This document shows, piece by piece, positions 17,787-30,196 of a stretch of DNA of 64,000 nt; position 1 is the stretch's first letter; every line of letters begins with the position of its first letter. Under the pieces are notes generated by a model. It saw only the letters and a list, made by a program, of their open reading frames with translations, made no database searches and was not told the origin of the DNA. The position numbers and the translations under genes are program-made. The stretch lies in NCBI RefSeq assembly GCF_056746865.1, contig NZ_CM163382.1. One strand, written 5' to 3'.

Positions 17787-18515
17787 ATGAAACGACATCT
17801 GAACACCAGCTACAGGCTGGTATGGAATCACATTACGGGTACCCTGGTGGTGGCCTCCGAACTGGCCCGCTCACGGGGAAAACGCGCCGGTGTGGCGATT
17901 GCGCTGTCTCTTGCTGCTGTCACATCAGTCCCGGCACTGGCTGCTGACACGGTTGTACAGGCGGGAGAAACCGTGAGCGGCGGAACACTGACAAATCATG
18001 ACAACCAGATTGTATCCGGAACAGCTGATGGCGTGACTGTCAGTACCGGGCTTGAGCTGGGGCCGGACAGTGACGAAAACACCGGCGGGCAATGGATAAA
18101 AGCGGGTGGCACAGGCAGAAACACCACTGTCACCGCAAATGGTCGTCAGATTGTGCAGGCAGGAGGAACTGCCAGTGATACGGTTATTCGTGATGGCGGA
18201 GGGCAGAGCCTTAACGGACTGGCGGTGAACACCACGCTGGATAACAGAGGTGAGCAGTGGGTACACGGGGGAGGGAAAGCTGCCGGTACAATTATTAACC
18301 AGGATGGTTACCAGACCATAAAACATGGCGGACTGGCAACCGGAACCATCGTCAACACCGGTGCAGAAGGTGGTCCGGAGTCTGAAAATGTGTCCAGCGG
18401 TCAGATGGTCGGAGGGACGGCTGAATCCACCACCATCAACAAAAATGGCCGGCAGGTTATCTGGTCTTCGGGGATGGCACGGGACACCCTCATTTACGCC
18501 GGTGGTGACCAGACT
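17787..18515 (+). pseudogene. flu: antigen 43 (Ag43) autotransporter, 5' portion interrupted by an IS
   Basis: MKRHLNTSYRLVWNHITGTLVVASELARSRGKRAGVAIALSLAAVTSVPALAADTVVQ… matches the Ag43 signal peptide and passenger domain; identity ends at …YAGGDQT where IS sequence begins. Confidence 0.85.
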
Positions 18516-18716
18516 GCAAAATGGCATCTGAATCGATCGCAGTTTGGCATTCGAATCGATCATGATTTGGCATCCATCTCCGATCACAGTTTGGCATCAC
18601 AATCGATCACGATTTGGCATGCTTCCGATCATTGATTGGCATCCTGCCAGTCACTCCGGGAATTAACTCTTTTCACCACAGTCTCCATTGCCGTGTTTAA
18701 ACCAGTGGAGACGTCA

Positions 18717-20282
18717 ATGTCCAGAAAGAGAAAATCCAGGAGCACTATGGAAACCTGTTTTAAGATTCTTCAGCTCAAGTTCGACAAGAAGCTGACTAAC
18801 CGTTGTATCGGACTGACGTTACACATCAGCGCCTCAACCGTTTTTGAGGTTCTTGCCCGCTTCAAAGCCTCTTCTCTGTCATGGCCATTACCTGCTGATA
18901 TATCCCATGACACGCTGGAGAAACTCATTTTTCCGCCCAAAGACACCTTTGCATCAGAGCTTGTAATGCCTGACATGTTGTACCTCGATACGGAAATGAG
19001 AAAACCAGGTGTGACGCGGCAACTGTTGTGGATGGAATACAAGGCACAGGCGGGTAACAAAGCGATGGGATACTCGCACTTCTGCCGTTGCTACCGGGAG
19101 TGGAAAAAAACGCGACGTCTCTCCATGCGCCAGGAGCATCGTGCCGGCGAAAAGCTTTTTATCGACTTCTGTGGTCCTACGGTTCCTGTTATTAATCCGG
19201 ACACCGGTGAGATACGCCGCGTGGCAATCTTCGTGGCCGTAATGGGGGCGTCCAACTATACCTACGTTGAAGCGTGCGAAGGTCAGGACATGATGTCATG
19301 GTTAAATGCCCACAGCCGTTGCCTGACCTTCCTGGGCGGCGTACCGAAGCTGCTCATCCCCGATAACCTCAGAAGCGCAGTGAAAAAGGCCGATCGATAT
19401 GAGCCTGTCATCAACGACAGTTATCAGGCACTGGCTGAGCACTATGGCACGGTTATCATCCCGGCCCGACCACGCAAACCTAAAGATAAACCAAAAGCAG
19501 AAAACGGCGTCCTCATCGTCGAACGATGGCTTCTTGCCCGCATCCGTAATGAAACCTTCCACACGCTCAGGGCGCTGAATGCGCGCCTTAGGGAGTTACT
19601 GACAGACATGAATAACCGGCCAATGAAGGGGTACGGCAATCAAACCCGTGCAGAACGCTTCCGCATACTGGATGCGCCAGCACTCTCTCCGCTGCCTCTG
19701 GCACCTTATGAATACACGGAATACAAAGCTGTGAAGGTTGGCCCTGACTACCACGTTGAATATGCCCGTCACTGGTACTCCGTTCCACACGAACTGGTCG
19801 GTCAGCGTCTGTCACTGAAGGCGGGGCAGTCGGTGGTACAGCTCTGGCACAAGGGGCAGTGTGTGGCGCAACATCCGCGCAGCACACATGAATATAAACA
19901 CACAACCAATCCGCTTCACATGCCAGAGCGCCACCGGCAGCACGGGACATGGACACCGGAACGCCTGATCGAGCAGGGAAAACGTACGGGCCCGTCCACA
20001 GGCCGGGTGGTTGAATCCATGCTGAAGGCAAAACCCCATCCGGAACTGGCTTATCGTGCAGTTCTGGGGCTGCTGGCACTTCAGAAAAAATACGGCCCGG
20101 AACGGCTGGAAAAGGCCTGTTACGTTGCCCTGCACTATAACGCCCCTGACAGACGCTTTATCGACAATCTGCTGCGTCACCATCGGGAGAACCTGGAGCT
20201 TCCATTATCCCGCCAGGGCGAACAACATCCGGCATATGCTTCAGAGCATGAAAACCTGCGTGGTCCGGGCTACTACCACTGA
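18717..20282 (+). CDS. istA: IS21-family transposase IstA
   Basis: Large ORF 18636..20282 with integrase-core features (…LFIDFCGPTVPV…); the start codon is uncertain (18636, 18717 or 18747). Confidence 0.75.
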   Translation: MSRKRKSRSTMETCFKILQLKFDKKLTNRCIGLTLHISASTVFEVLARFKASSLSWPLPADISHDTLEKLIFPPKDTFASELVMPDMLYLDTEMRKPGVTRQLLWMEYKAQAGNKAMGYSHFCRCYREWKKTRRLSMRQEHRAGEKLFIDFCGPTVPVINPDTGEIRRVAIFVAVMGASNYTYVEACEGQDMMSWLNAHSRCLTFLGGVPKLLIPDNLRSAVKKADRYEPVINDSYQALAEHYGTVIIPARPRKPKDKPKAENGVLIVERWLLARIRNETFHTLRALNARLRELLTDMNNRPMKGYGNQTRAERFRILDAPALSPLPLAPYEYTEYKAVKVGPDYHVEYARHWYSVPHELVGQRLSLKAGQSVVQLWHKGQCVAQHPRSTHEYKHTTNPLHMPERHRQHGTWTPERLIEQGKRTGPSTGRVVESMLKAKPHPELAYRAVLGLLALQKKYGPERLEKACYVALHYNAPDRRFIDNLLRHHRENLELPLSRQGEQHPAYASEHENLRGPGYYH

Positions 20283-20298
20283 CAGAAGGAACAACAGT

Positions 20299-21054
20299 AT
20301 GAGTGATAACCTGTTAAACAAACTGACCCAACTGAAACTCCCGGCGATGGCCGGGAGCCTGATACGGCAGCGGGAAACGCCTCAGACCTACGACGAACTG
20401 TCGTTCGAGGAAAGGCTGACGCTGCTGGTTGATGACGAGCTTCTGAGCAGGGAAAACAGCCGTGTGGCACGGTTGAGAAAAAATGCCGGCCTGAAATACC
20501 AGGCAACACCGGAAGGGCTGCGCTATCCGGCCTCAAGAGGTCTGCGGGCTGAACAGATGAGAGAACTGCTGAACGGCCACTACATAACCCACAGGAAAAA
20601 CCTGCTGATAACCGGTCCGACAGGATGTGGCAAGAGCTGGATAGCCAATGCGCTGGGCGAACAGGCATGTCGACAGAAACACAGCGTCCGGTACTGTAGA
20701 ACCGGGCGATTACTGGAACAACTGGCTCAGGGACGTGTTGATGGCAGCTGGCTGAAATATCTGAAACAGTTGCAAAAAATACAGGTTCTAATCCTGGACG
20801 ATCTGGGGCTGGAACAGTTAAGTAACGCCCAGTGTAATGACCTTCTGGAGCTCATAGAGGATCGTTACGGACAAAGCAGCACGATAGTGGTAAGCCAGTT
20901 CCCGGTAGATAAATGGCATGGTCTGATGGAGAACCCAACAACAGCAGATGCCATCCTGGACAGACTGGTACATAACTCACACCGGGTGGTCCTTCAGGGA
21001 GAGTCACTGAGGAAAAATCCCCCGGTAGTGGAAAGCAGCGAAAAAACGCGTTAA
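20299..21054 (+). CDS. istB: IS21-family helper ATPase IstB
   Basis: 251 aa from the ATG at 20299; Walker A GPTGCGKSW and Walker B VLILDDLG. Confidence 0.85.
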   Translation: MSDNLLNKLTQLKLPAMAGSLIRQRETPQTYDELSFEERLTLLVDDELLSRENSRVARLRKNAGLKYQATPEGLRYPASRGLRAEQMRELLNGHYITHRKNLLITGPTGCGKSWIANALGEQACRQKHSVRYCRTGRLLEQLAQGRVDGSWLKYLKQLQKIQVLILDDLGLEQLSNAQCNDLLELIEDRYGQSSTIVVSQFPVDKWHGLMENPTTADAILDRLVHNSHRVVLQGESLRKNPPVVESSEKTR

Positions 21055-21144
21055 AAAGCGGTAGAAAAAGTTAAGTTCCCGGTTGATCGAATGGATGCGA
21101 ATCGCTGATCGGACTTCGATGCCAATCCGTGATCGAATAGAGCG

Positions 21145-23554
21145 GAATACGCACCAGACGGTACACGGAGAGGCACATAACACCCGACTGGAGGGGGGTA
21201 ACCAGTATGTACACAACGGTGGCACGGCAACAGAGACGCTGATAAACCGTGATGGCTGGCAGATGATTAAGGAAGGAGGAACTGCCGCGCATACCACCAT
21301 CAACCAGAAAGGAAAGCTGCAGGTGAATGCCGGCGGTAAAGCGTCTGATGTCACCCAGAACACGGGCGGTGCACTGGTTACCAGTACAGCTGCAACCGTC
21401 ACCGGCACAAACCGCCTGGGAGCATTCTCCGTTGTGGCGGGTAAGGCTGATAATGTCGTACTGGAAAATGGCGGACGTCTGGATGTGCTGAGCGGACACA
21501 CAGCCACTAATACCCGTGTGGATGATGGCGGAACGCTGGATGTCCGCAACGGTGGTGCCGCCACCACCGTATCCATGGGGAATGGCGGTGTACTGCTGGC
21601 CGATTCCGGTGCCGCTGTCAGTGGTACCCGGAGCGACGGAACGGCATTCCATATCGGAGGCGGTCAGGCGGATGCCCTGATGCTGGAAAAAGGCAGTTCA
21701 TTCACGCTGAACGCCGGTGATACGGCCACGGATACCACGGTAAATGGCGGATTGTTCACTGCCAGAGGGGGCTCGCTGGCGGGCACCACCACGCTGAATA
21801 ACGGTGCCACGCTTATCCTTTCCGGGAAAACGGTAAATAACGATACCCTGACCATCCGTGAAGGTGATGCACTCCTGCAGGGAGGCGCTCTTACCGGTAA
21901 CGGCAGGGTGGAAAAATCAGGAAGTGGCACACTCACTGTCAGCAACACCACACTCACCCAGAAAACCGTCAACCTGAATGAAGGCACGCTGACGCTGAAC
22001 AACAGTACCGTCACCACGGATGTCATCGCTCAGCGCGGCACGGCCCTGAAGCTGACCGGCAGCACAGTGCTGAACGGTGCCATTGACCCCACGAATGTCA
22101 TCCTGACATCCGGTGCCACCTGGAATATCCCCGATAACGCCACGGTTCAGTCGGTGGTGGATGACCTCAGCCATGCCGGACAGATTCATTTCACCTCCGC
22201 CCGCACAGGGAAGTTCGTTCCGACAACTCTGCAGGTGAAAAACCTGAACGGGCAGAATGGCACCATCAGCCTGCGTGTACGCCCGGATATGGCGCAGAAC
22301 AATGCTGACAGACTGGTCATTGACGGTGGCAGGGCAACCGGAAAAACCATCCTGAATCTGGTGAACGCCGGCAACAGTGGTACGGGGCTGGCGACCACCG
22401 GTAAGGGTATTCAGGTGGTTGAGGCCATTAACGGTGCCACCACGGAGGAAGGGGCTTTTGTCCAGGGGAATATGTTGCAGGCCGGGGCCTTTAACTACAC
22501 CCTCAACCGGGACAGTGATGAGAGCTGGTATCTGCGCAGTGAAGAACGTTATCGTGCTGAAGTCCCCCTGTACGCCTCCATGCTGACACAGGCAATGGAC
22601 TATGACCGGATTCTGGCAGGCTCCCGCAGCCATCAGACCGGTGTAAACGGTGAAAATAACAGCGTCCGTCTCAGCATTCAGGGCGGCCATCTCGGTCACG
22701 ATAACAACGGCGGTATTGCCCGTGGGGCCACGCCGGAAAGCAGCGGCAGCTATGGCTTCGTCCGTCTGGAGAGTGACCTGCTCAGAACAGAGGTCGCCGG
22801 TATGTCACTGACGACAGGAGTGTATGGTGCTGCAGGCCATTCTTCCGTTGATGTTAAGGATGATGACGGCTCCCGCGCCGGCACGGTCCGGGATGATGCC
22901 GGCAGCCTGGGCGGATATATGAACCTGACACACACCTCCTCCGGCCTGTGGGCTGACATTGTGGCACAGGGAACCCGCCACAGTATGAAAGCGTCATCGG
23001 GCAATAACGACTTCCGCGCACGGGGCTGGGGCTGGCTGGGCTCACTGGAAACCGGTCTGCCCTTCAGTATCACTGACAACCTGATGCTGGAGCCACGGCT
23101 GCAGTACACCTGGCAGGGGCTTTCGCTGGATGACGGTAAGGACAACGCCGGTTATGTGAAGTTCGGGCATGGCAGTGCACAACATGTGCGTGCCGGTTTC
23201 CGTCTGGGCAGCCACAACGATATGACCTTTGGTGAAGGCACCTCATCCCGTGCCCCCCTGCGTGACAGTGCAAAACACAGTGTGCGTGAACTGCCGGTGA
23301 ACTGGTGGGTACAGCCTTCCGTTATCCGCACCTTCAGCTCCCGGGGTGATATGCGTGTGGGGACCTCCACCGCAGGCAGCGGGATGACGTTCTCACCCTC
23401 ACAGAATGGCACTTCACTGGATCTGCAGGCAGGACTGGAAGCCCGTGTCCGGGAAAATATCACCCTGGGCGTTCAGGCCGGTTATGCCCACAGCGTCAGC
23501 GGCAGCAGCGCTGAAGGCTATAACGGTCAGGCCACGCTGAATGTGACCTTCTGA
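21145..23554 (+). pseudogene. flu: antigen 43 (Ag43) autotransporter, 3' portion (rest of passenger domain plus beta-barrel)
   Basis: Reading frame resumes with …HQTVHGEAHNTRLEGGNQYVHNGGTATE… and continues to the canonical autotransporter C-terminus …GYNGQATLNVTF. Confidence 0.85.
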
Positions 23555-23668
23555 CAGAACCATCGCCTCTTTGTGGTCCCGGTCATCATGATCGGGACCC
23601 GGACCGGCGCAACGGATATTCAACGCCACATTCGCTGGCATTAACAATAACATGATATTCATCACGGA

Positions 23669-25168
23669 GTGACTATGTTACAGATAGTCGGCGCGCTGAT
23701 CCTGCTGATAGCAGGATTTGCCATTCTTCGCCTTTTGTTCAGAGCATTAATCAGCACAGCTTCTGCGCTGGCAGGGCTTATATTGCTGTGTCTGTTCGGC
23801 CCGGCTTTACTGGCTGGCTATATCACTGAACGCATAACCCGGTTATTCCATATTCGCTGGCTGGCAGGCGTATTTCTGACAATTGCCGGAATGATCATCA
23901 GCTTCATGTGGGGACTTGATGGTAAACATATCACACTGGAGGCTCATACCTTTGACTCTGTAAAATTTATTCTGACCACCGCTCTCGCCGCTGGTCTGCT
24001 GGCTCTTCCCGTGCAGATAAGAACAATTCAGCAGAACGGGCTCACACCAGAAGATATCAGCAAGGAAATTAACGGGTATTACTGCTGTTTTTATACTGCT
24101 TTTTTCCTTATGGCGTGTTCTGCATACGCACCATTGATCGCATTGCCGTTCGATATTTCACCCTCACTGATGTGGTGGGGCGGGTTGTTGTACTGGCTGG
24201 CTGCATTAGTGACGCTGCTATGGGCGGCCAGCCAGATCCAGGCGCTGAAAAAACTGACCAGTGCCATCCGCCAGACACTGGAAGAACAACCGGTGCTCAA
24301 CAGTAAATCGTGGCTGAGCAGTTTGCAAAACGATTACAGCCTTCCTGAAACGTTGACGGAGCGCATCTGGCTCACGCTCATTTCACAACGGATTTCCCGG
24401 GGAGAACTGAGGGAATTTGAACTGGCAGACGGAAACTGGCTACTGGACAATGCCTGGTATGAAAGAAACATGGCGGGTTTCAACGAAAAGCTGAGAGAGA
24501 GCCTGTCATTTACCCCTGATGAACTGAAAACCCTCTTCCGGAACCGCCTGAATTTATCACCGGAAGCGAATGACGATTTTCTCGATCGTTGCCTGGACGG
24601 CGGTGACTGGTACCCCTTTTCAGAAGGCCGCCGTTTTGTATCATTCCACCACGTGGATGAGCTTCGTATCTGTGCCTCCTGCGGGCTGACAGAAGTACAT
24701 CATGCCCCGGAAAATCATAAGCCGGATCCGGAATGGTACTGCTCCTCTCTTTGTCGCGAAACAGAAACACTGTGTCAGGACATTTATGAACGTTCTTACA
24801 CCGGTTTTATTTCCGATGCAACGGCGAATGGTCTGATTCTCATGAAACTGCCGGAAACCTGGAGTACAAATGAGAAAATGTTTGCTTCCGGAGGGCAGGG
24901 ACATGGGTTTGCCGCTGAACGGGGAAACCATATTGTCGACAGAGTCCGTCTGAAAAACGCACGGATCCTCGGTGATAATAATGCCAAAAATGGAGCAGAC
25001 AGACTGGTCAGCGGAACAGAAATCCAGACGAAATATTGTTCAACTGCAGCCCGTAGCGTCGGTGCGGCATTCGACGGACAGAACGGACAGTATCGTTACA
25101 TGGGAAATCATGGTCCCATGCAACTGGAAGTCCCCGTGATCAGTATGCCGGCGCTGTGGAAACCATGA
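23669..25168 (+). CDS. yeeR: YeeR-like inner membrane protein
   Basis: 499 aa with several N-terminal hydrophobic helices; position downstream of flu as in CP4-44. Confidence 0.55.
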   Translation: MTMLQIVGALILLIAGFAILRLLFRALISTASALAGLILLCLFGPALLAGYITERITRLFHIRWLAGVFLTIAGMIISFMWGLDGKHITLEAHTFDSVKFILTTALAAGLLALPVQIRTIQQNGLTPEDISKEINGYYCCFYTAFFLMACSAYAPLIALPFDISPSLMWWGGLLYWLAALVTLLWAASQIQALKKLTSAIRQTLEEQPVLNSKSWLSSLQNDYSLPETLTERIWLTLISQRISRGELREFELADGNWLLDNAWYERNMAGFNEKLRESLSFTPDELKTLFRNRLNLSPEANDDFLDRCLDGGDWYPFSEGRRFVSFHHVDELRICASCGLTEVHHAPENHKPDPEWYCSSLCRETETLCQDIYERSYTGFISDATANGLILMKLPETWSTNEKMFASGGQGHGFAAERGNHIVDRVRLKNARILGDNNAKNGADRLVSGTEIQTKYCSTAARSVGAAFDGQNGQYRYMGNHGPMQLEVPVISMPALWKP

Positions 25169-26190
25169 AGAATAAGATCCGCGAAGGTAAAGTACCCGGT
25201 GTAACCGATCCCGAAGAAGCGTCCCGGCTGATTCGTCGGGGACATCTGACTTATACCCAGGCCCGTAATATCACCCGGTTCGGGACCATCGAATCGGTCA
25301 CTTATGATATTGCCGAGGGGTCGGTTGTCAGTCTGGCGGCCGGAGGGATCAGTTTTGCCCTGACGGCATCGGTCTTCTGGCTCAGCACCGGCGATCGCGA
25401 TGCTGCCCTGCAGACAGCTGCTGTCCAGGCAGGAAAAACCTTCACCCGCACACTGGCTGTCTACGTCACAACCCAGCAACTTCACCGGCTCAGTGTTGTT
25501 CAGGGTATGCTGAAGCATATTGATTTTTCGACGGCCAGCCCGACTGTCCGGCAGGCGCTTCAGAAGGGGACCGGTGCAGGAAATATCAGTGCCCTGAACA
25601 AAGTGATGAAGGGGTCGCTGGTGACATCTCTGGCACTGGTAGCTGTCACAACCGGCCCTGACATGATCAAAATGTTGCGGGGACGGATCTCCGGTGCGCA
25701 GTTCATCAGGAATCTTGCCGTGGCATCTTCCTGTGTGGCAGGTGGTGCTGTCGGGTCAGTGGCGGGCGGGATATTGTTCAGTCCACTGGGACCATTTGGT
25801 GCACTGACAGGGCGTGTGGTTGGCGGTGTTCTGGGGGGAATGATTGCCTCCGCTGTATCAGGAAAAATTGCCGGAGCGCTGGTTGAAGAAGATCGCGTCA
25901 AAATTCTGGCAATGATTCAGGAGCAGGTGACATGGCTTGCCGGCAGTTTCCTGCTGACCGGACATGAGATTGAAAATCTGAACGCGAATCTGGCCCGTGT
26001 TATCGATCAGAATGCTCTGGAGATCATTTTCGCCGCCGGTATACAACAACGGGCCGCGACCAACATGTTAATCAAACCACTGGTGGTCAGTATCATCAGG
26101 CAACGCCCCGTCATGGAATATGATGCATCCCATCTCGGCAATATGGTTAACCGACTGGAAGAAACATTACCCCCGGAGTTACCGGCATAA
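25156..26190 (+). CDS. hypothetical membrane protein (Gly/Ala-rich hydrophobic segments); may be a frameshifted continuation of the upstream gene
   Basis: 344-aa ORF beginning 13 nt before the upstream stop, in a different frame. Confidence 0.45.
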   Translation: METMKNKIREGKVPGVTDPEEASRLIRRGHLTYTQARNITRFGTIESVTYDIAEGSVVSLAAGGISFALTASVFWLSTGDRDAALQTAAVQAGKTFTRTLAVYVTTQQLHRLSVVQGMLKHIDFSTASPTVRQALQKGTGAGNISALNKVMKGSLVTSLALVAVTTGPDMIKMLRGRISGAQFIRNLAVASSCVAGGAVGSVAGGILFSPLGPFGALTGRVVGGVLGGMIASAVSGKIAGALVEEDRVKILAMIQEQVTWLAGSFLLTGHEIENLNANLARVIDQNALEIIFAAGIQQRAATNMLIKPLVVSIIRQRPVMEYDASHLGNMVNRLEETLPPELPA

Positions 26191-26265: not shown

Positions 26266-26721
26266 ATGATTCACCTGTTCAAAACCTGCATGATTACCGC
26301 CTTCATTCTGGGGTTAACGTGGTCTGCCCCACTCCGGGCACAGGATCAACGTTACATCAGTATACGCAATACAGATACGATATGGCTCCCGGGAAATATT
26401 TGTGCTTACCAGTTCCGGCTGGATAATGGCGGAAACGATGAAGGATTTGGCCCCCTCACCATCACTCTGCAACTCAAAGACAAATATGGTCAGACGCTGG
26501 TGACCAGAAAAATGGAAACGGAAGCCTTTGGTGACAGTAATGCCACGCGAACCACAGACGCATTTCTGGAAACGGAGTGCGTGGAAAATGTCGCCACAAC
26601 CGAAATCATTAAAGCAACTGAAGAAAGTAACGGCCATCGTGTCAGTCTGCCGTTATCGGTTTTCGATCCCCAGGACTACCATCCACTGCTGATTACCGTT
26701 TCCGGAAAAAATGTTAACTGA
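26266..26721 (+). CDS. hypothetical secreted protein
   Basis: 151 aa with N-terminal signal-peptide-like segment (MIHLFKTCMITAFILGLTWSAPLRAQ). Confidence 0.5.
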   Translation: MIHLFKTCMITAFILGLTWSAPLRAQDQRYISIRNTDTIWLPGNICAYQFRLDNGGNDEGFGPLTITLQLKDKYGQTLVTRKMETEAFGDSNATRTTDAFLETECVENVATTEIIKATEESNGHRVSLPLSVFDPQDYHPLLITVSGKNVN

Positions 26722-27110
26722 TCCCTGAAGTCAGTTTCATGCTTCAGCCTCTGCCACAACGTATGGCAGAGGCTATTTATCAGGAGAAACCAGATATGCC
26801 GGGTTACACACAGAGTATGTCCTGGCTGAAGGATCTTTCTCATACGGGCAGGCGGTTGCTGTCATAACAGCTTACCGCAATGTGTTTACTGAAGATGACC
26901 AGGGAACATATTCCCGGCTGGTTATCCGTAATGCTGAAGGTCAGTTGCGCTGGTGATGCCGGAACACAGCTTAATACTCAGCTCGCCAGTTAAGGGCTTC
27001 TCAGACAATAAACGTCATTCATTTCATCTGTCAGGCCGCGTCTTCTCCGGGAGACGTGGCTTTTTCATTTATTACACCAGTAAATCTTAACCACCGATAA
27101 GGAGCAAATT

Positions 27111-27929
27111 ATGCGACTAGCCAGTCGTTTTGGTTATGCGAACCAGATACGCCGTGACCGTCCGCTGACACACGAAGAACTGATGCACCATGTACCGGGT
27201 ATTTTCGGTGAAGACCGGCATACCTCCCGCAGTGAACGCTATACGTACATCCCCACCATCACCGTACTGGAAAGCCTGCAGCGGGAAGGCTTTCAGCCAT
27301 TCTTCGCCTGCCAGACCCGCGTACGTGACCCGGACCGCCGGGAATACACCAAACACATGCTGCGTCTGCGGCGGGCCGGAGAGATAAACGGAGAACATGT
27401 CCCTGAAATTATTCTGCTCAACTCTCATGACGGTACCTCCAGCTACCAGATGCTGCCGGGTTACTTCAGGTTCGTCTGCCAGAACGGATGCGTCTGTGGT
27501 CAGTCTCTGGGGGAAGTGCGTGTTCCGCACCGGGGAAATGTGGTGGAGAAAGTTATTGAAGGGGCTTACGAGGTGGTGGGGGTTTTTGACCGGATTGAGG
27601 AAAAGCGTGATGCCATGCAGTCGCTGATTCTGCCGCCACCGGCACGCCAGGCGCTGGCACAGGCGGCACTGACTTACCGTTATGGTGACGAACATCAGCC
27701 CGTCACCACCGCCGACATTCTGACACCACGACGCCGGGAGGATTACGGTAAGGACCTGTGGAGTGCTTATCAGACCATTCAGGAGAATATGCTGAAAGGC
27801 GGAATTTCCGGTCGCAGTGCCAGAGGAAAACGTATCCATACCCGTGCCATTCACAGCATCGACACCGACATTAAGCTCAACCGCGCATTGTGGGTGATGG
27901 CTGAAACGCTGCTGGAGAGTATGCGCTGA
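27111..27929 (+). CDS. conserved island protein (YfjQ-like, possibly DUF932 family)
   Basis: 272-aa ORF; occupies the position of the yfjQ/ykfC-type gene in CP4-type islands. Confidence 0.55.
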   Translation: MRLASRFGYANQIRRDRPLTHEELMHHVPGIFGEDRHTSRSERYTYIPTITVLESLQREGFQPFFACQTRVRDPDRREYTKHMLRLRRAGEINGEHVPEIILLNSHDGTSSYQMLPGYFRFVCQNGCVCGQSLGEVRVPHRGNVVEKVIEGAYEVVGVFDRIEEKRDAMQSLILPPPARQALAQAALTYRYGDEHQPVTTADILTPRRREDYGKDLWSAYQTIQENMLKGGISGRSARGKRIHTRAIHSIDTDIKLNRALWVMAETLLESMR

Positions 27930-28020
27930 TGCCGTTTCCCTGAAAGCGCAGTTCTGACTCACGTCTGTCCCTTCCCCCGGGGTTTCTTCCATTCATTTAC
28001 TTTTTATAAGGAATAATCTC

Positions 28021-28506
28021 ATGACAACCGTCTTGCATAATTCCACCACTCCTTCTGTTTCCGTAACCGCTGCATCAGGGAATGACCAGCCTCAGCTGGT
28101 TGCCACCATAGTCCCTGATGAACAGCGCATCAGCTTCTGGCCGCAGCACTTTGGCCTCATTCCACAGTGGGTGACCCTGGAGCCCCGTGTCTTCGGCTGG
28201 ATGGACCGTCTGTGCGAAGACTACTGCGGTGGTATCTGGAATCTGTACACCCTGAACAACGGCGGGGCATTTATGGCACCCGAACCGGATGACGATGATG
28301 ACGAAAACTGGGTACTGTTCAATGCCATGAACGGTAACCGCGCTGAAATGAGCCCGGAAGCCGCCGGCATTGCCGCCTGTCTGATGACGTACAGTCATCA
28401 TGCCTGTCGTACGGAGTGTTATGCCATGACGATCCATTATTACCGGTTGCGGGATTACGCCCTGCAGCATCCGGAATGCAGCGCCATTATGCGCATCATC
28501 GACTGA
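28021..28506 (+). CDS. antirestriction protein (KlcA/ArdB-like; YfjX/YafX family)
   Basis: 161 aa; acidic patch PEPDDDDDENW and family-typical context directly upstream of radC. Confidence 0.65.
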   Translation: MTTVLHNSTTPSVSVTAASGNDQPQLVATIVPDEQRISFWPQHFGLIPQWVTLEPRVFGWMDRLCEDYCGGIWNLYTLNNGGAFMAPEPDDDDDENWVLFNAMNGNRAEMSPEAAGIAACLMTYSHHACRTECYAMTIHYYRLRDYALQHPECSAIMRIID

Positions 28507-28998
28507 ATGGAGAGAAGCACAATGCAACAACTTTCCTTTCTGCCCGGAGAGATGACGCCCGGCGAGCGCAGTCTCATTCTGCGGGCCCTGAAAACCCTGG
28601 ACCGCCATCTTCATGAACCCGGCGTGGCCTTCACCTCCACCCGTGCGGCACGGGAATGGCTGATTCTGAACATGGCGGGACTGGAGCGTGAAGAGTTCCG
28701 GGTACTGTATCTGAACAACCAGAATCAGCTGATTGCCGGTGAAACCCTCTTCACCGGCACCATCAACCGCACGGAAGTCCATCCCCGGGAAGTGATTAAA
28801 CGCGCCCTGTACCACAATGCCGCCGCCGTGGTACTGGCACACAATCACCCGTCCGGTGAAGTCACCCCCAGTAAGGCAGACCGCCTTATCACGGAACGTC
28901 TGGTACAGGCACTGGCCCTGGTGGATATCCGGGTACCGGACCATCTGATAGTTGGTGGCAGTCAGGTTTTCTCCTTTGCGGAACACGGTCTGCTTTAA
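28507..28998 (+). CDS. yeeS: RadC-like JAB-domain protein (YeeS/YfjY/YkfG family)
   Basis: 163 aa; JAMM-like motif HNHPSGEVTPSKAD. Confidence 0.8.
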   Translation: MERSTMQQLSFLPGEMTPGERSLILRALKTLDRHLHEPGVAFTSTRAAREWLILNMAGLEREEFRVLYLNNQNQLIAGETLFTGTINRTEVHPREVIKRALYHNAAAVVLAHNHPSGEVTPSKADRLITERLVQALALVDIRVPDHLIVGGSQVFSFAEHGLL

Positions 28999-29066
28999 CC
29001 CGTCACCGTCACAACCACATCACACCTGTTTTCACTTTTATCTTCTGTCTTCAGAGGTATCCCATT

Positions 29067-29288
29067 ATGAAAATCATCACCCGTGGTGAAGCCATGCGTA
29101 TTCACCAACAGCATCCTGCATCCCGTCTATTTCCGTTCTGCACCGGTAAGTACCGCTGGCACGGCAGTGCTGAGGCGTATACCGGTCGTGAAGTACAGGA
29201 TATTCCCGGTGTGCTGGCCGTGTTTGCTGAACGCCGTAAGGACAGTTTTGGCCCGTATGTCCGGCTGATGAGCGTCACCCTGAACTGA
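29067..29288 (+). CDS. yeeT: YeeT-like island protein
   Basis: 73 aa; complete copy of the partial gene at 1..114. Confidence 0.7.
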   Translation: MKIITRGEAMRIHQQHPASRLFPFCTGKYRWHGSAEAYTGREVQDIPGVLAVFAERRKDSFGPYVRLMSVTLN

Positions 29289-29361
29289 GTGGGAATTCTG
29301 ATGAGCAGAATTATCGCCAATACCGGAGCATTCTTAGCCGATTTTCTGTAGGGATTTTATC

Positions 29362-29730
29362 GTGTCAGACACACTCCCCGGGACAACACTTCCCGACGAC
29401 AATCACGACCGCCCCTGGTGGGGGCTGCCCTGCACCGTGACGCCCTGTTTCGGGGCACGTCTGGTGCAGGAGGGTAACCGGTTGCATTACCTTGCCGACC
29501 GCGCCGGTATCAGAGGCCTGTACAGCAATGCAGATGCGTACCACCTGGACCAGGCCTTTCCGCTGCTGATGAAACAACTGGAACTCATGCTCACCAGCGG
29601 TGAACTGAATCCCCGCCATCAGCATACCGTCACGCTGTATGCAAAAGGGCTGACCTGCAAAGCCGATACCCTCAGCAGTTGTGGTTACGTTTATCTGGCT
29701 GTTTATCCGACGCCCGAAATGAAAAATTAA
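29362..29730 (+). CDS. cbeA: CbeA/YeeU-family antitoxin, second copy (GTG start)
   Basis: 122 aa; MSDTLPGTTLPDDNHDRPWWGLPCTVTPCFGARLVQEGNRLHYLADRAGIRG…; near-identical to 194..568. Confidence 0.85.
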   Translation: MSDTLPGTTLPDDNHDRPWWGLPCTVTPCFGARLVQEGNRLHYLADRAGIRGLYSNADAYHLDQAFPLLMKQLELMLTSGELNPRHQHTVTLYAKGLTCKADTLSSCGYVYLAVYPTPEMKN

Positions 29731-29818
29731 CTCTCCAGAATAGCCTTCTGCTACGGCCTGGTGTTTTCACCACGCCACTTTCCCATTTTTATATCTGCAT
29801 ATCAGGAAAATCTTCAGT

Positions 29819-30196
29819 ATGAAAACATTACCTGTATTACCCGGGCAGGCGGCCAGTTCTCGCCCGTCTCCTGTTGAAATCTGGCAGATACTTCTGTCCC
29901 GACTGCTGGACCAGCACTACGGCCTCACACTGAATGACACACCGTTTGCCGATGAACGTGTGATCGAGCAGCATATTGAGGCAGGCATTTCACTGTGTGA
30001 TGCGGTGAACTTTCTCGTGGAAAAATACGCGCTGGTGCGTACCGACCAGCCGGGATTCAGCGCCTGTACCCGCTCTCAGTTAATAAACAGCATCGATATC
30101 CTCCGGGCTCGCAGGGCGACCGGCCTGATGACCCGCGACAATTACAGAACGGTAAATAATATTATCCTGGGTAAGCACCCGGAGGTGAAACAATGA
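29819..30196 (+). CDS. cbtA: CbtA/YeeV-family toxin, second copy
   Basis: 125 aa; near-identical to 615..992. Confidence 0.85.
   Translation: MKTLPVLPGQAASSRPSPVEIWQILLSRLLDQHYGLTLNDTPFADERVIEQHIEAGISLCDAVNFLVEKYALVRTDQPGFSACTRSQLINSIDILRARRATGLMTRDNYRTVNNIILGKHPEVKQ

Follow-up and report, generated by a model that had tools for sequence, protein, structure and literature searches.

Two overlapping reading frames downstream of agn43 very probably represent one yeeR gene that has lost a single cytosine

The subject of this analysis is yeeR, a gene located directly 3' of the 3' part of agn43 (flu) in a 64,000-nucleotide stretch of contig NZ_CM163382.1 (RefSeq assembly GCF_056746865.1), referred to below as the window. 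At this position a mechanical search yields two open reading frames (ORFs) on the plus strand, ORF1 at 23669 to 25168 (499 amino acids (aa) from a GTG) and ORF2 at 25156 to 26190 (344 aa, also from a GTG). They overlap by 13 nt, ORF2 is shifted to the -1 (+2) frame with respect to ORF1, and the agn43 stop codon just upstream occupies positions 23552-23554. The original prediction, made from the sequence, had described this out-of-frame overlap with the same end and start points, and the ORF listing agrees with it; it had also described both products as hydrophobic and membrane-like, and strongly hydrophobic segments are indeed present in each half. The genes agn43, yeeR and irmA follow one another in this order on one strand (Table 1); in CP4-44-like islands, yeeR occupies the central place of the agn43-yeeR-irmA cluster. 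Moriel et al. (2016, PMC4807369) reported that the three genes are co-transcribed from the Dam/OxyR-controlled agn43 promoter and that release of IrmA does not need YeeR, which they called uncharacterised.

Table 1. Positions of yeeR, its lesion and the neighbouring features in the window.
Feature	Coordinates	Strand	Basis or remark
IS21-family element (istA/istB) in agn43, direct repeat ACCAGAC	18515..21152	+	flanks contiguous in 2016C-3878
agn43/flu, 3' part	21153..23554	+	operon described in PMC4807369
Shine-Dalgarno GGAG (23664-23667) and ATG start (23675-23677)	23664..23677	+	sequence; homologue starts
yeeR pseudogene (YeeR family protein, frameshifted)	23675..26190	+	2516 nt vs 2517 nt intact; PGAP and one-C repair
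ORF1: YeeR residues 1-487 and 10-residue out-of-frame tail VISMPALWKP, then TGA	23675..25168	+	497-aa product
Lesion site, C4 run vs C5 in intact alleles (codons V486-P487-R488, GTC CCC CGT)	25132..25135	+	DNA alignment
ORF2 from internal Met498: YeeR residues 498-838 (341 codons), hydrophobic and glycine-zipper C-terminal region	25165..26190	+	
ATGA overlap: ORF1 stop TGA (25166-25168) on Met498 ATG (25165-25167)	25165..25168	+	sequence
irmA (IrmA family protein), downstream of yeeR	26266..26721	+	ORF listing; annotation; PMC4807369
DUF932	27111-27929		ORF inspection
Antirestriction	28021-28506		ORF inspection
RadC/JAB	28507 or 28522 to 28998		ORF inspection
YeeT/DUF987	29067-29288		ORF inspection
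CbeA antitoxin	29362-29730		ORF inspection
CbtA toxin	29819-30196		ORF inspection

The GTG at 23669 appears to be merely the first possible start of a mechanically drawn ORF, and the biologically supported start of ORF1 would be the ATG at 23675. This codon has a GGAG 8 nt upstream, it is the start chosen by the Prokaryotic Genome Annotation Pipeline (PGAP), and the equivalent methionine begins all 40 homologues in the alignment described below, which start ML/IQ. From this ATG, ORF1 encodes an N-terminal multi-helix membrane domain, a soluble region, an invariant cluster of four cysteines (Cys4) and most of a conserved core. The mechanical start of ORF2, the GTG at 25156, corresponds to V495 of the intact protein.

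Alignment of the junction with three intact copies and with the K-12 gene shows a single length difference, the window reading GT-CCCC-GTG and the others GT-CCCCC-GTG; we refer to the two forms as C4 and C5. Insertion of one C at 25132-25135 produces a single uninterrupted ORF of 838 codons with no other stop, and because one added C fuses both frames into one ORF, their juxtaposition is not a matter of chance. The repaired gene differs from that of strain JCM 5491 (WP_001328678.1) by 43 nt and by 20 of 838 aa (∼98% aa identity). The C4/C5 alignment and the repair to 838 codons together therefore identify the two ORFs as halves of yeeR, with the one-nucleotide deletion as the sole lesion. We conclude that the region is very probably one gene, yeeR, inactivated by the loss of one C from the C5 run at codons 486-488. 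Translation from the ATG at 23675 runs normally to Pro487, continues through 10 wrong codons and stops at the TGA at 25166-25168, and the remaining 341 codons (Met498 to the end) lie in the -1 frame, where they appear as a separate ORF. The mutation presumably has a single origin, probably a slip of the polymerase at the homopolymer, and a minority lineage would since have inherited the C4 allele or acquired it with the island.

The distribution of the two alleles was determined in complete genomes of Escherichia coli, the region being detected by megablast in about 3,900 of 5,426. Two oligonucleotides centred on the run, one for C4 (43 nt) and one for C5 (44 nt), were then compared with 2,560 records. 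The exact C5 version is present in 2,508 of these, and the other 52 differ at one position from the C5 oligonucleotide, as expected where the sole copy is C4; the exact C4 version is the best copy in 60 records. No third length variant of the 43/44-nt segment is the best copy in any record, and no record lacks both alleles. With the records ordered by how closely they match the window gene, the first 58 show no gap (2,522 nt, hence C4) and are 99.8-100% identical, and the next record is already C5, at 99.7%. This pattern indicates one haplotype with one origin. The sources of the C4 carriers are humans, poultry, cattle, dogs, a cat, a yak, a monkey and water; they span several continents, and many groups did the sequencing. 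These comparisons point to C4 being a real inherited mutation, neither a sequencing error nor a recurrent switch, and the allele is a handy marker of a lineage comprising about 2% of the complete E. coli genomes that have the segment.

Public annotation also separates the two alleles. In copies 100% identical to the window, PGAP places one coding sequence (CDS) at the equivalent of 23675-26190, calls it a pseudogene flagged "frameshifted", and names it "hypothetical protein" or "YeeR family protein". Where a copy differs slightly, it is given a single intact CDS of 2517 nt encoding an 838-aa "YeeR family protein", as in JCM 5491, 21AH126 (WP_094171589.1) and SY033 (WP_001378240.1). The frameshift is thus already known, since standard annotation of identical genomes marks this very mutation, and it is an ordinary finding. 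The correct annotation is one frameshifted yeeR pseudogene and not two membrane-protein genes, and beyond that the lesion has little importance.

A search with the intact protein against a collection of 5.8 billion proteins returned 403 relatives. Among the best 120 of these, most are 805-850 aa long with a query coverage of 65-100%; they derive from Serratia, Methylomonas, Pseudomonas, Shewanella, Herbaspirillum, Dyella, Cupriavidus, Stenotrophomonas and others. They all have a precomputed match to Pfam PF27347 (YeeR_C), and the E. coli proteins of lesser length in this set are incomplete or truncated versions. We aligned 40 sequences, which share 29-66% identity with the E. coli protein; all 40 are single ORFs, of about 805-854 aa. 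Most of the distant homologues end in a conserved Ala-Ala, reminiscent of C-terminal degradation tags, where the E. coli protein ends in ...ELPA.

The best conserved block of the alignment reads G(G)QGHGFAAE..N..D ... NAKNGADRLV.G..IQTKYC ... PMxLEVPxDQY, with P481, M482, E485, V486, P487, D489 and Q490 invariant, and the frameshift falls inside its PMxLEVPxDQY segment. Residues 488-497, including the invariant D489 and Q490 as well as Y491 and A494, are encoded neither by ORF1 nor by ORF2 when started at Met498. The invariant set of the family (Cys4; E415, D442, Q451 and K453; PMxLEVPxDQY) is accordingly incomplete in the window, where ORF1 encoding ends at P487; homology to the family extends over the full length once the missing C is restored, but the uninterrupted ORF of 805-854 codons is lacking. 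Because the break lies within the most conserved motif and invariant residues are gone from both possible products, we regard this copy as a pseudogene copy of a family member, not as a functional member, and complete loss of function is the expected outcome.

These comparisons also settle how the original prediction is to be read. It had offered a genuine overlap, an authentic frameshift or a sequencing error in one longer gene, and had proposed comparison with homologues, for which two separate genes with the same overlap would have spoken against a single gene. Instead, intact E. coli copies and distant relatives alike contain one continuous ORF, with 2508 of 2560 records having the exact in-frame C5 sequence, so that a genuine overlap finds no parallel in the family. 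The suggestion of a frameshifted single gene proved right, as intact copies are one 838-aa gene from which the window lacks one C, and the difference between C4 and C5 together with the shared C4 haplotype identifies the frameshift as an authentic one that leaves a pseudogene.

Intact 838-aa YeeR of E. coli is found at the same locus, with agn43 upstream and irmA, DUF905, DUF932, antirestriction, radC, yeeT and cbeA genes downstream, whereas the window copy falls into two pieces, a product of 497 aa and a detached remainder of 341 codons. The YeeR of K-12 (b2001, 510 aa, in the CP4-44 prophage) is also truncated at its C-terminus. Comparison of the MG1655 yeeR region with window positions 23675-25194 shows that it consists of residues 1-507 of the 838-aa gene followed by EER, its break lying 20 codons beyond the frameshift described here. 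The causes are different: in K-12 a multi-kb deletion joins yeeR to yeeS and has removed the 3' third of yeeR together with irmA and the DUF905, DUF932 and antirestriction genes, all of which are present in the window, where the 3' third of yeeR is kept and is merely out of frame. The disruption of MG1655 yeeR by a large deletion has been described previously (PMC4807369), as have the K-12 truncation and the frequent insertions and deletions in flu-yeeR among pathotypes (PMC6480617, PMC9431211). The gene is still listed in the K-12 'y-ome' (PMC11551758), and the yeeR papers give no function for YeeR.

An AlphaFold2 model computed from the 40-sequence alignment has a mean predicted local distance difference test (pLDDT) score of 77.6. 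It contains long helices to residue about 204, matching six strongly hydrophobic segments within residues 1-190, then a soluble region of mixed alpha/beta structure (about 205-330), an alpha/beta core modelled with confidence (about 405-535), and a helical C-terminal part with low confidence across residues 674-736. Hydrophobic glycine-zipper segments are present in the C-terminal part at 550-568, 683-705 and 715-737, and a soluble stretch of roughly 350 residues separates the N- and C-terminal hydrophobic segments. The frameshift breaks the protein directly behind the beta strand at residues 483-486, within the core domain, where the pLDDT is about 85-92. Just before this core, the cysteines C333, C336, C356 and C360 (CxxC...CxxxC; window ∼24671-24754) are invariant in the 40 homologues, a pattern that suggests a zinc-ribbon-like element.

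Searches for relatives of known structure or function gave little. PDB sequence searches with the full protein and with a profile of the core found no match, and a Pfam scan of 29 core-domain sequences gave only scattered noise. Local Pfam and NCBIfam scans assigned no family to ORF1 and returned only sub-threshold matches to Gly-zipper and C19orf12 for ORF2. A weak match to a PHROGs tape-measure protein (E = 0.0028) was set aside and put down to low-complexity Gly/Ala helices. With the full-length model, Foldseek found only marginal winged-helix matches (E at least 0.1), located after the membrane domain and probably stemming from the soluble stretch between residues 205 and 330 or so. A weak resemblance may link the conserved core to PD-(D/E)xK nucleases (for example CdiA-CT of B. 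pseudomallei 4g6v, Hjc, FokI, NgoMIV and HamA). YeeR may be a membrane protein with a restriction-endonuclease-like domain as its cytoplasmic core, which we offer as a lead and not as a result. The family extends across the Proteobacteria, usually as a stand-alone gene, and the faintly nuclease-like core provides a testable lead for a 'y-ome' gene.

A further likeness is to PDC-M09B of the PADLOC collection, a candidate and unvalidated defence protein. Its hidden Markov models (PDLC04408 and PDLC04409) match 25 of the 40 YeeR-family proteins, with a best E value of 1.2e-11 and one of 3.6e-6 for the E. coli protein. The alignment is weak and partial, albeit in the same order through the conserved core and the hydrophobic C-terminal region and thus to either side of the break, and the sequence comparison would indicate a weak kinship. 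The PDC-M09B profiles, at about 480 positions, are without the N-terminal membrane domain of YeeR, and PDC-M09 is a two-gene candidate system, whereas YeeR stands alone in two distant homologues (Pseudomonas nunensis and Dyella), whose neighbourhoods contain unrelated genes and no conserved partner. No literature on 'PDC-M09' was found.

The similarities above could be combined into a more elaborate proposal, in which intact YeeR consists of a helical membrane domain at the N-terminus, a zinc ribbon of the Cys4 type, a PD-(D/E)xK-like nuclease core and a glycine-zipper C-terminal membrane region, is related to PDC-M09B and, in E. coli, shares a transcript with the phase-variable Ag43, and in which the C4 allele and the K-12 truncation are not simply dead genes but remnants of altered function that keep the core and have lost the C-terminal membrane module. 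We consider this unlikely.

Of lower probability again, with only a slim chance of being correct, is a functional split, in which two overlapping cistrons are translated, the C-terminal part by re-initiation at the ATGA, with the two parts cooperating or acting alone. The stop codon of ORF1 overlaps an in-frame ATG of ORF2 within this ATGA (25165-25168), and the possible synthesis of a C-terminal part at this site is a point against a simple inactivation of yeeR. No second disabling mutation has appeared so far, and K-12 keeps a similar N-terminal fragment with 507 native residues. However, only one young haplotype (about 2% of records) has this arrangement, which no distant homologue shares; a folded domain is cut, with residues 488-497 and the invariant D489 and Q490 absent from either product; only a weak GGA lies upstream of the ATG at 25165; and the lack of further decay is what would be expected of a recent mutation. 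The ATGA is of accidental origin, although some re-initiation could occur there.

A sequencing or assembly error, with C5 and an intact yeeR in the real genome, was another option in the original prediction. A one-nucleotide change in homopolymer length is the commonest kind of assembly error, but about 58-60 complete assemblies, made independently in different laboratories and representing different hosts and countries, share exactly this C4. Random errors would scatter across haplotypes, whereas all C4 copies belong to a single haplotype with an identity to the window of 99.8% or more, and the C5 copies are 99.7% identical or lower. A run of four or five bases is also short for a systematic homopolymer error. 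In view of the C4 haplotype shared by so many assemblies, error is very unlikely.

The least probable explanation, to which we give practically no weight, is that the full-length protein is restored or switched, either by programmed -1 ribosomal frameshifting or by phase variation based on slippage. The shift needed is indeed -1, one formal X XXY YYZ heptamer (G GGA AAT, 25102-25108) lies in the productive overlap window, and the neighbouring agn43 is phase variable, though by Dam/OxyR, but the heptamer is equally present in intact in-frame alleles (about 0.14 are expected by chance in 37 codons), and a shift there would garble the invariant residues 479-487. RNA folding downstream shows no stability beyond that of shuffled sequences (z = +0.75), and homologues are single-frame. 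Slipped-strand switching would need a much longer run than C4/C5 to be efficient, and C4 belongs to a single haplotype, with no recurrence across haplotypes and no other tract length seen. The locus thus does not display the conserved shift, slippery heptamer and stimulatory structure of a programmed -1 frameshift gene, nor the long tract and recurrent length variation of a slipped-strand phase-variable gene, its tract being 4-5 C in a single haplotype.

Other genes of the island are also damaged. The agn43 gene (start about 17787, end 23554) is interrupted after 728 nt by a 2.6-kb element of the IS21 family of insertion sequences, with istA at 18636-20282, istB ending at 21054 and the 7-bp direct repeat ACCAGAC at both flanks. 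In strain 2016C-3878 these flanks adjoin each other and are 100% identical, and among the listed records that match the flanks at 100% identity and carry the same yeeR allele, none has the insertion; it therefore looks strain-specific and recent. An insertion downstream of agn43a in CFT073, between flu and yeeR, abolishes IrmA expression (PMC4807369). By comparison with that strain, the IS21-family insertion probably uncouples yeeR from the phase-variable agn43 promoter.

Downstream of irmA, a DUF905 gene (∼26800-26993) is likewise a pseudogene: compared with intact copies it has gained 2 nt (AC; ACAC to ACACAC) behind codon 4 and lost 20 nt, and PGAP flags it as "frameshifted" in identical strains. 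Together with the yeeR frameshift and the interruption of agn43, the broken DUF905 gene marks this copy of the Ag43 island as decaying. From 27111 to 30196 the window contains the usual CP4-type module, all of whose genes are apparently intact by ORF inspection.

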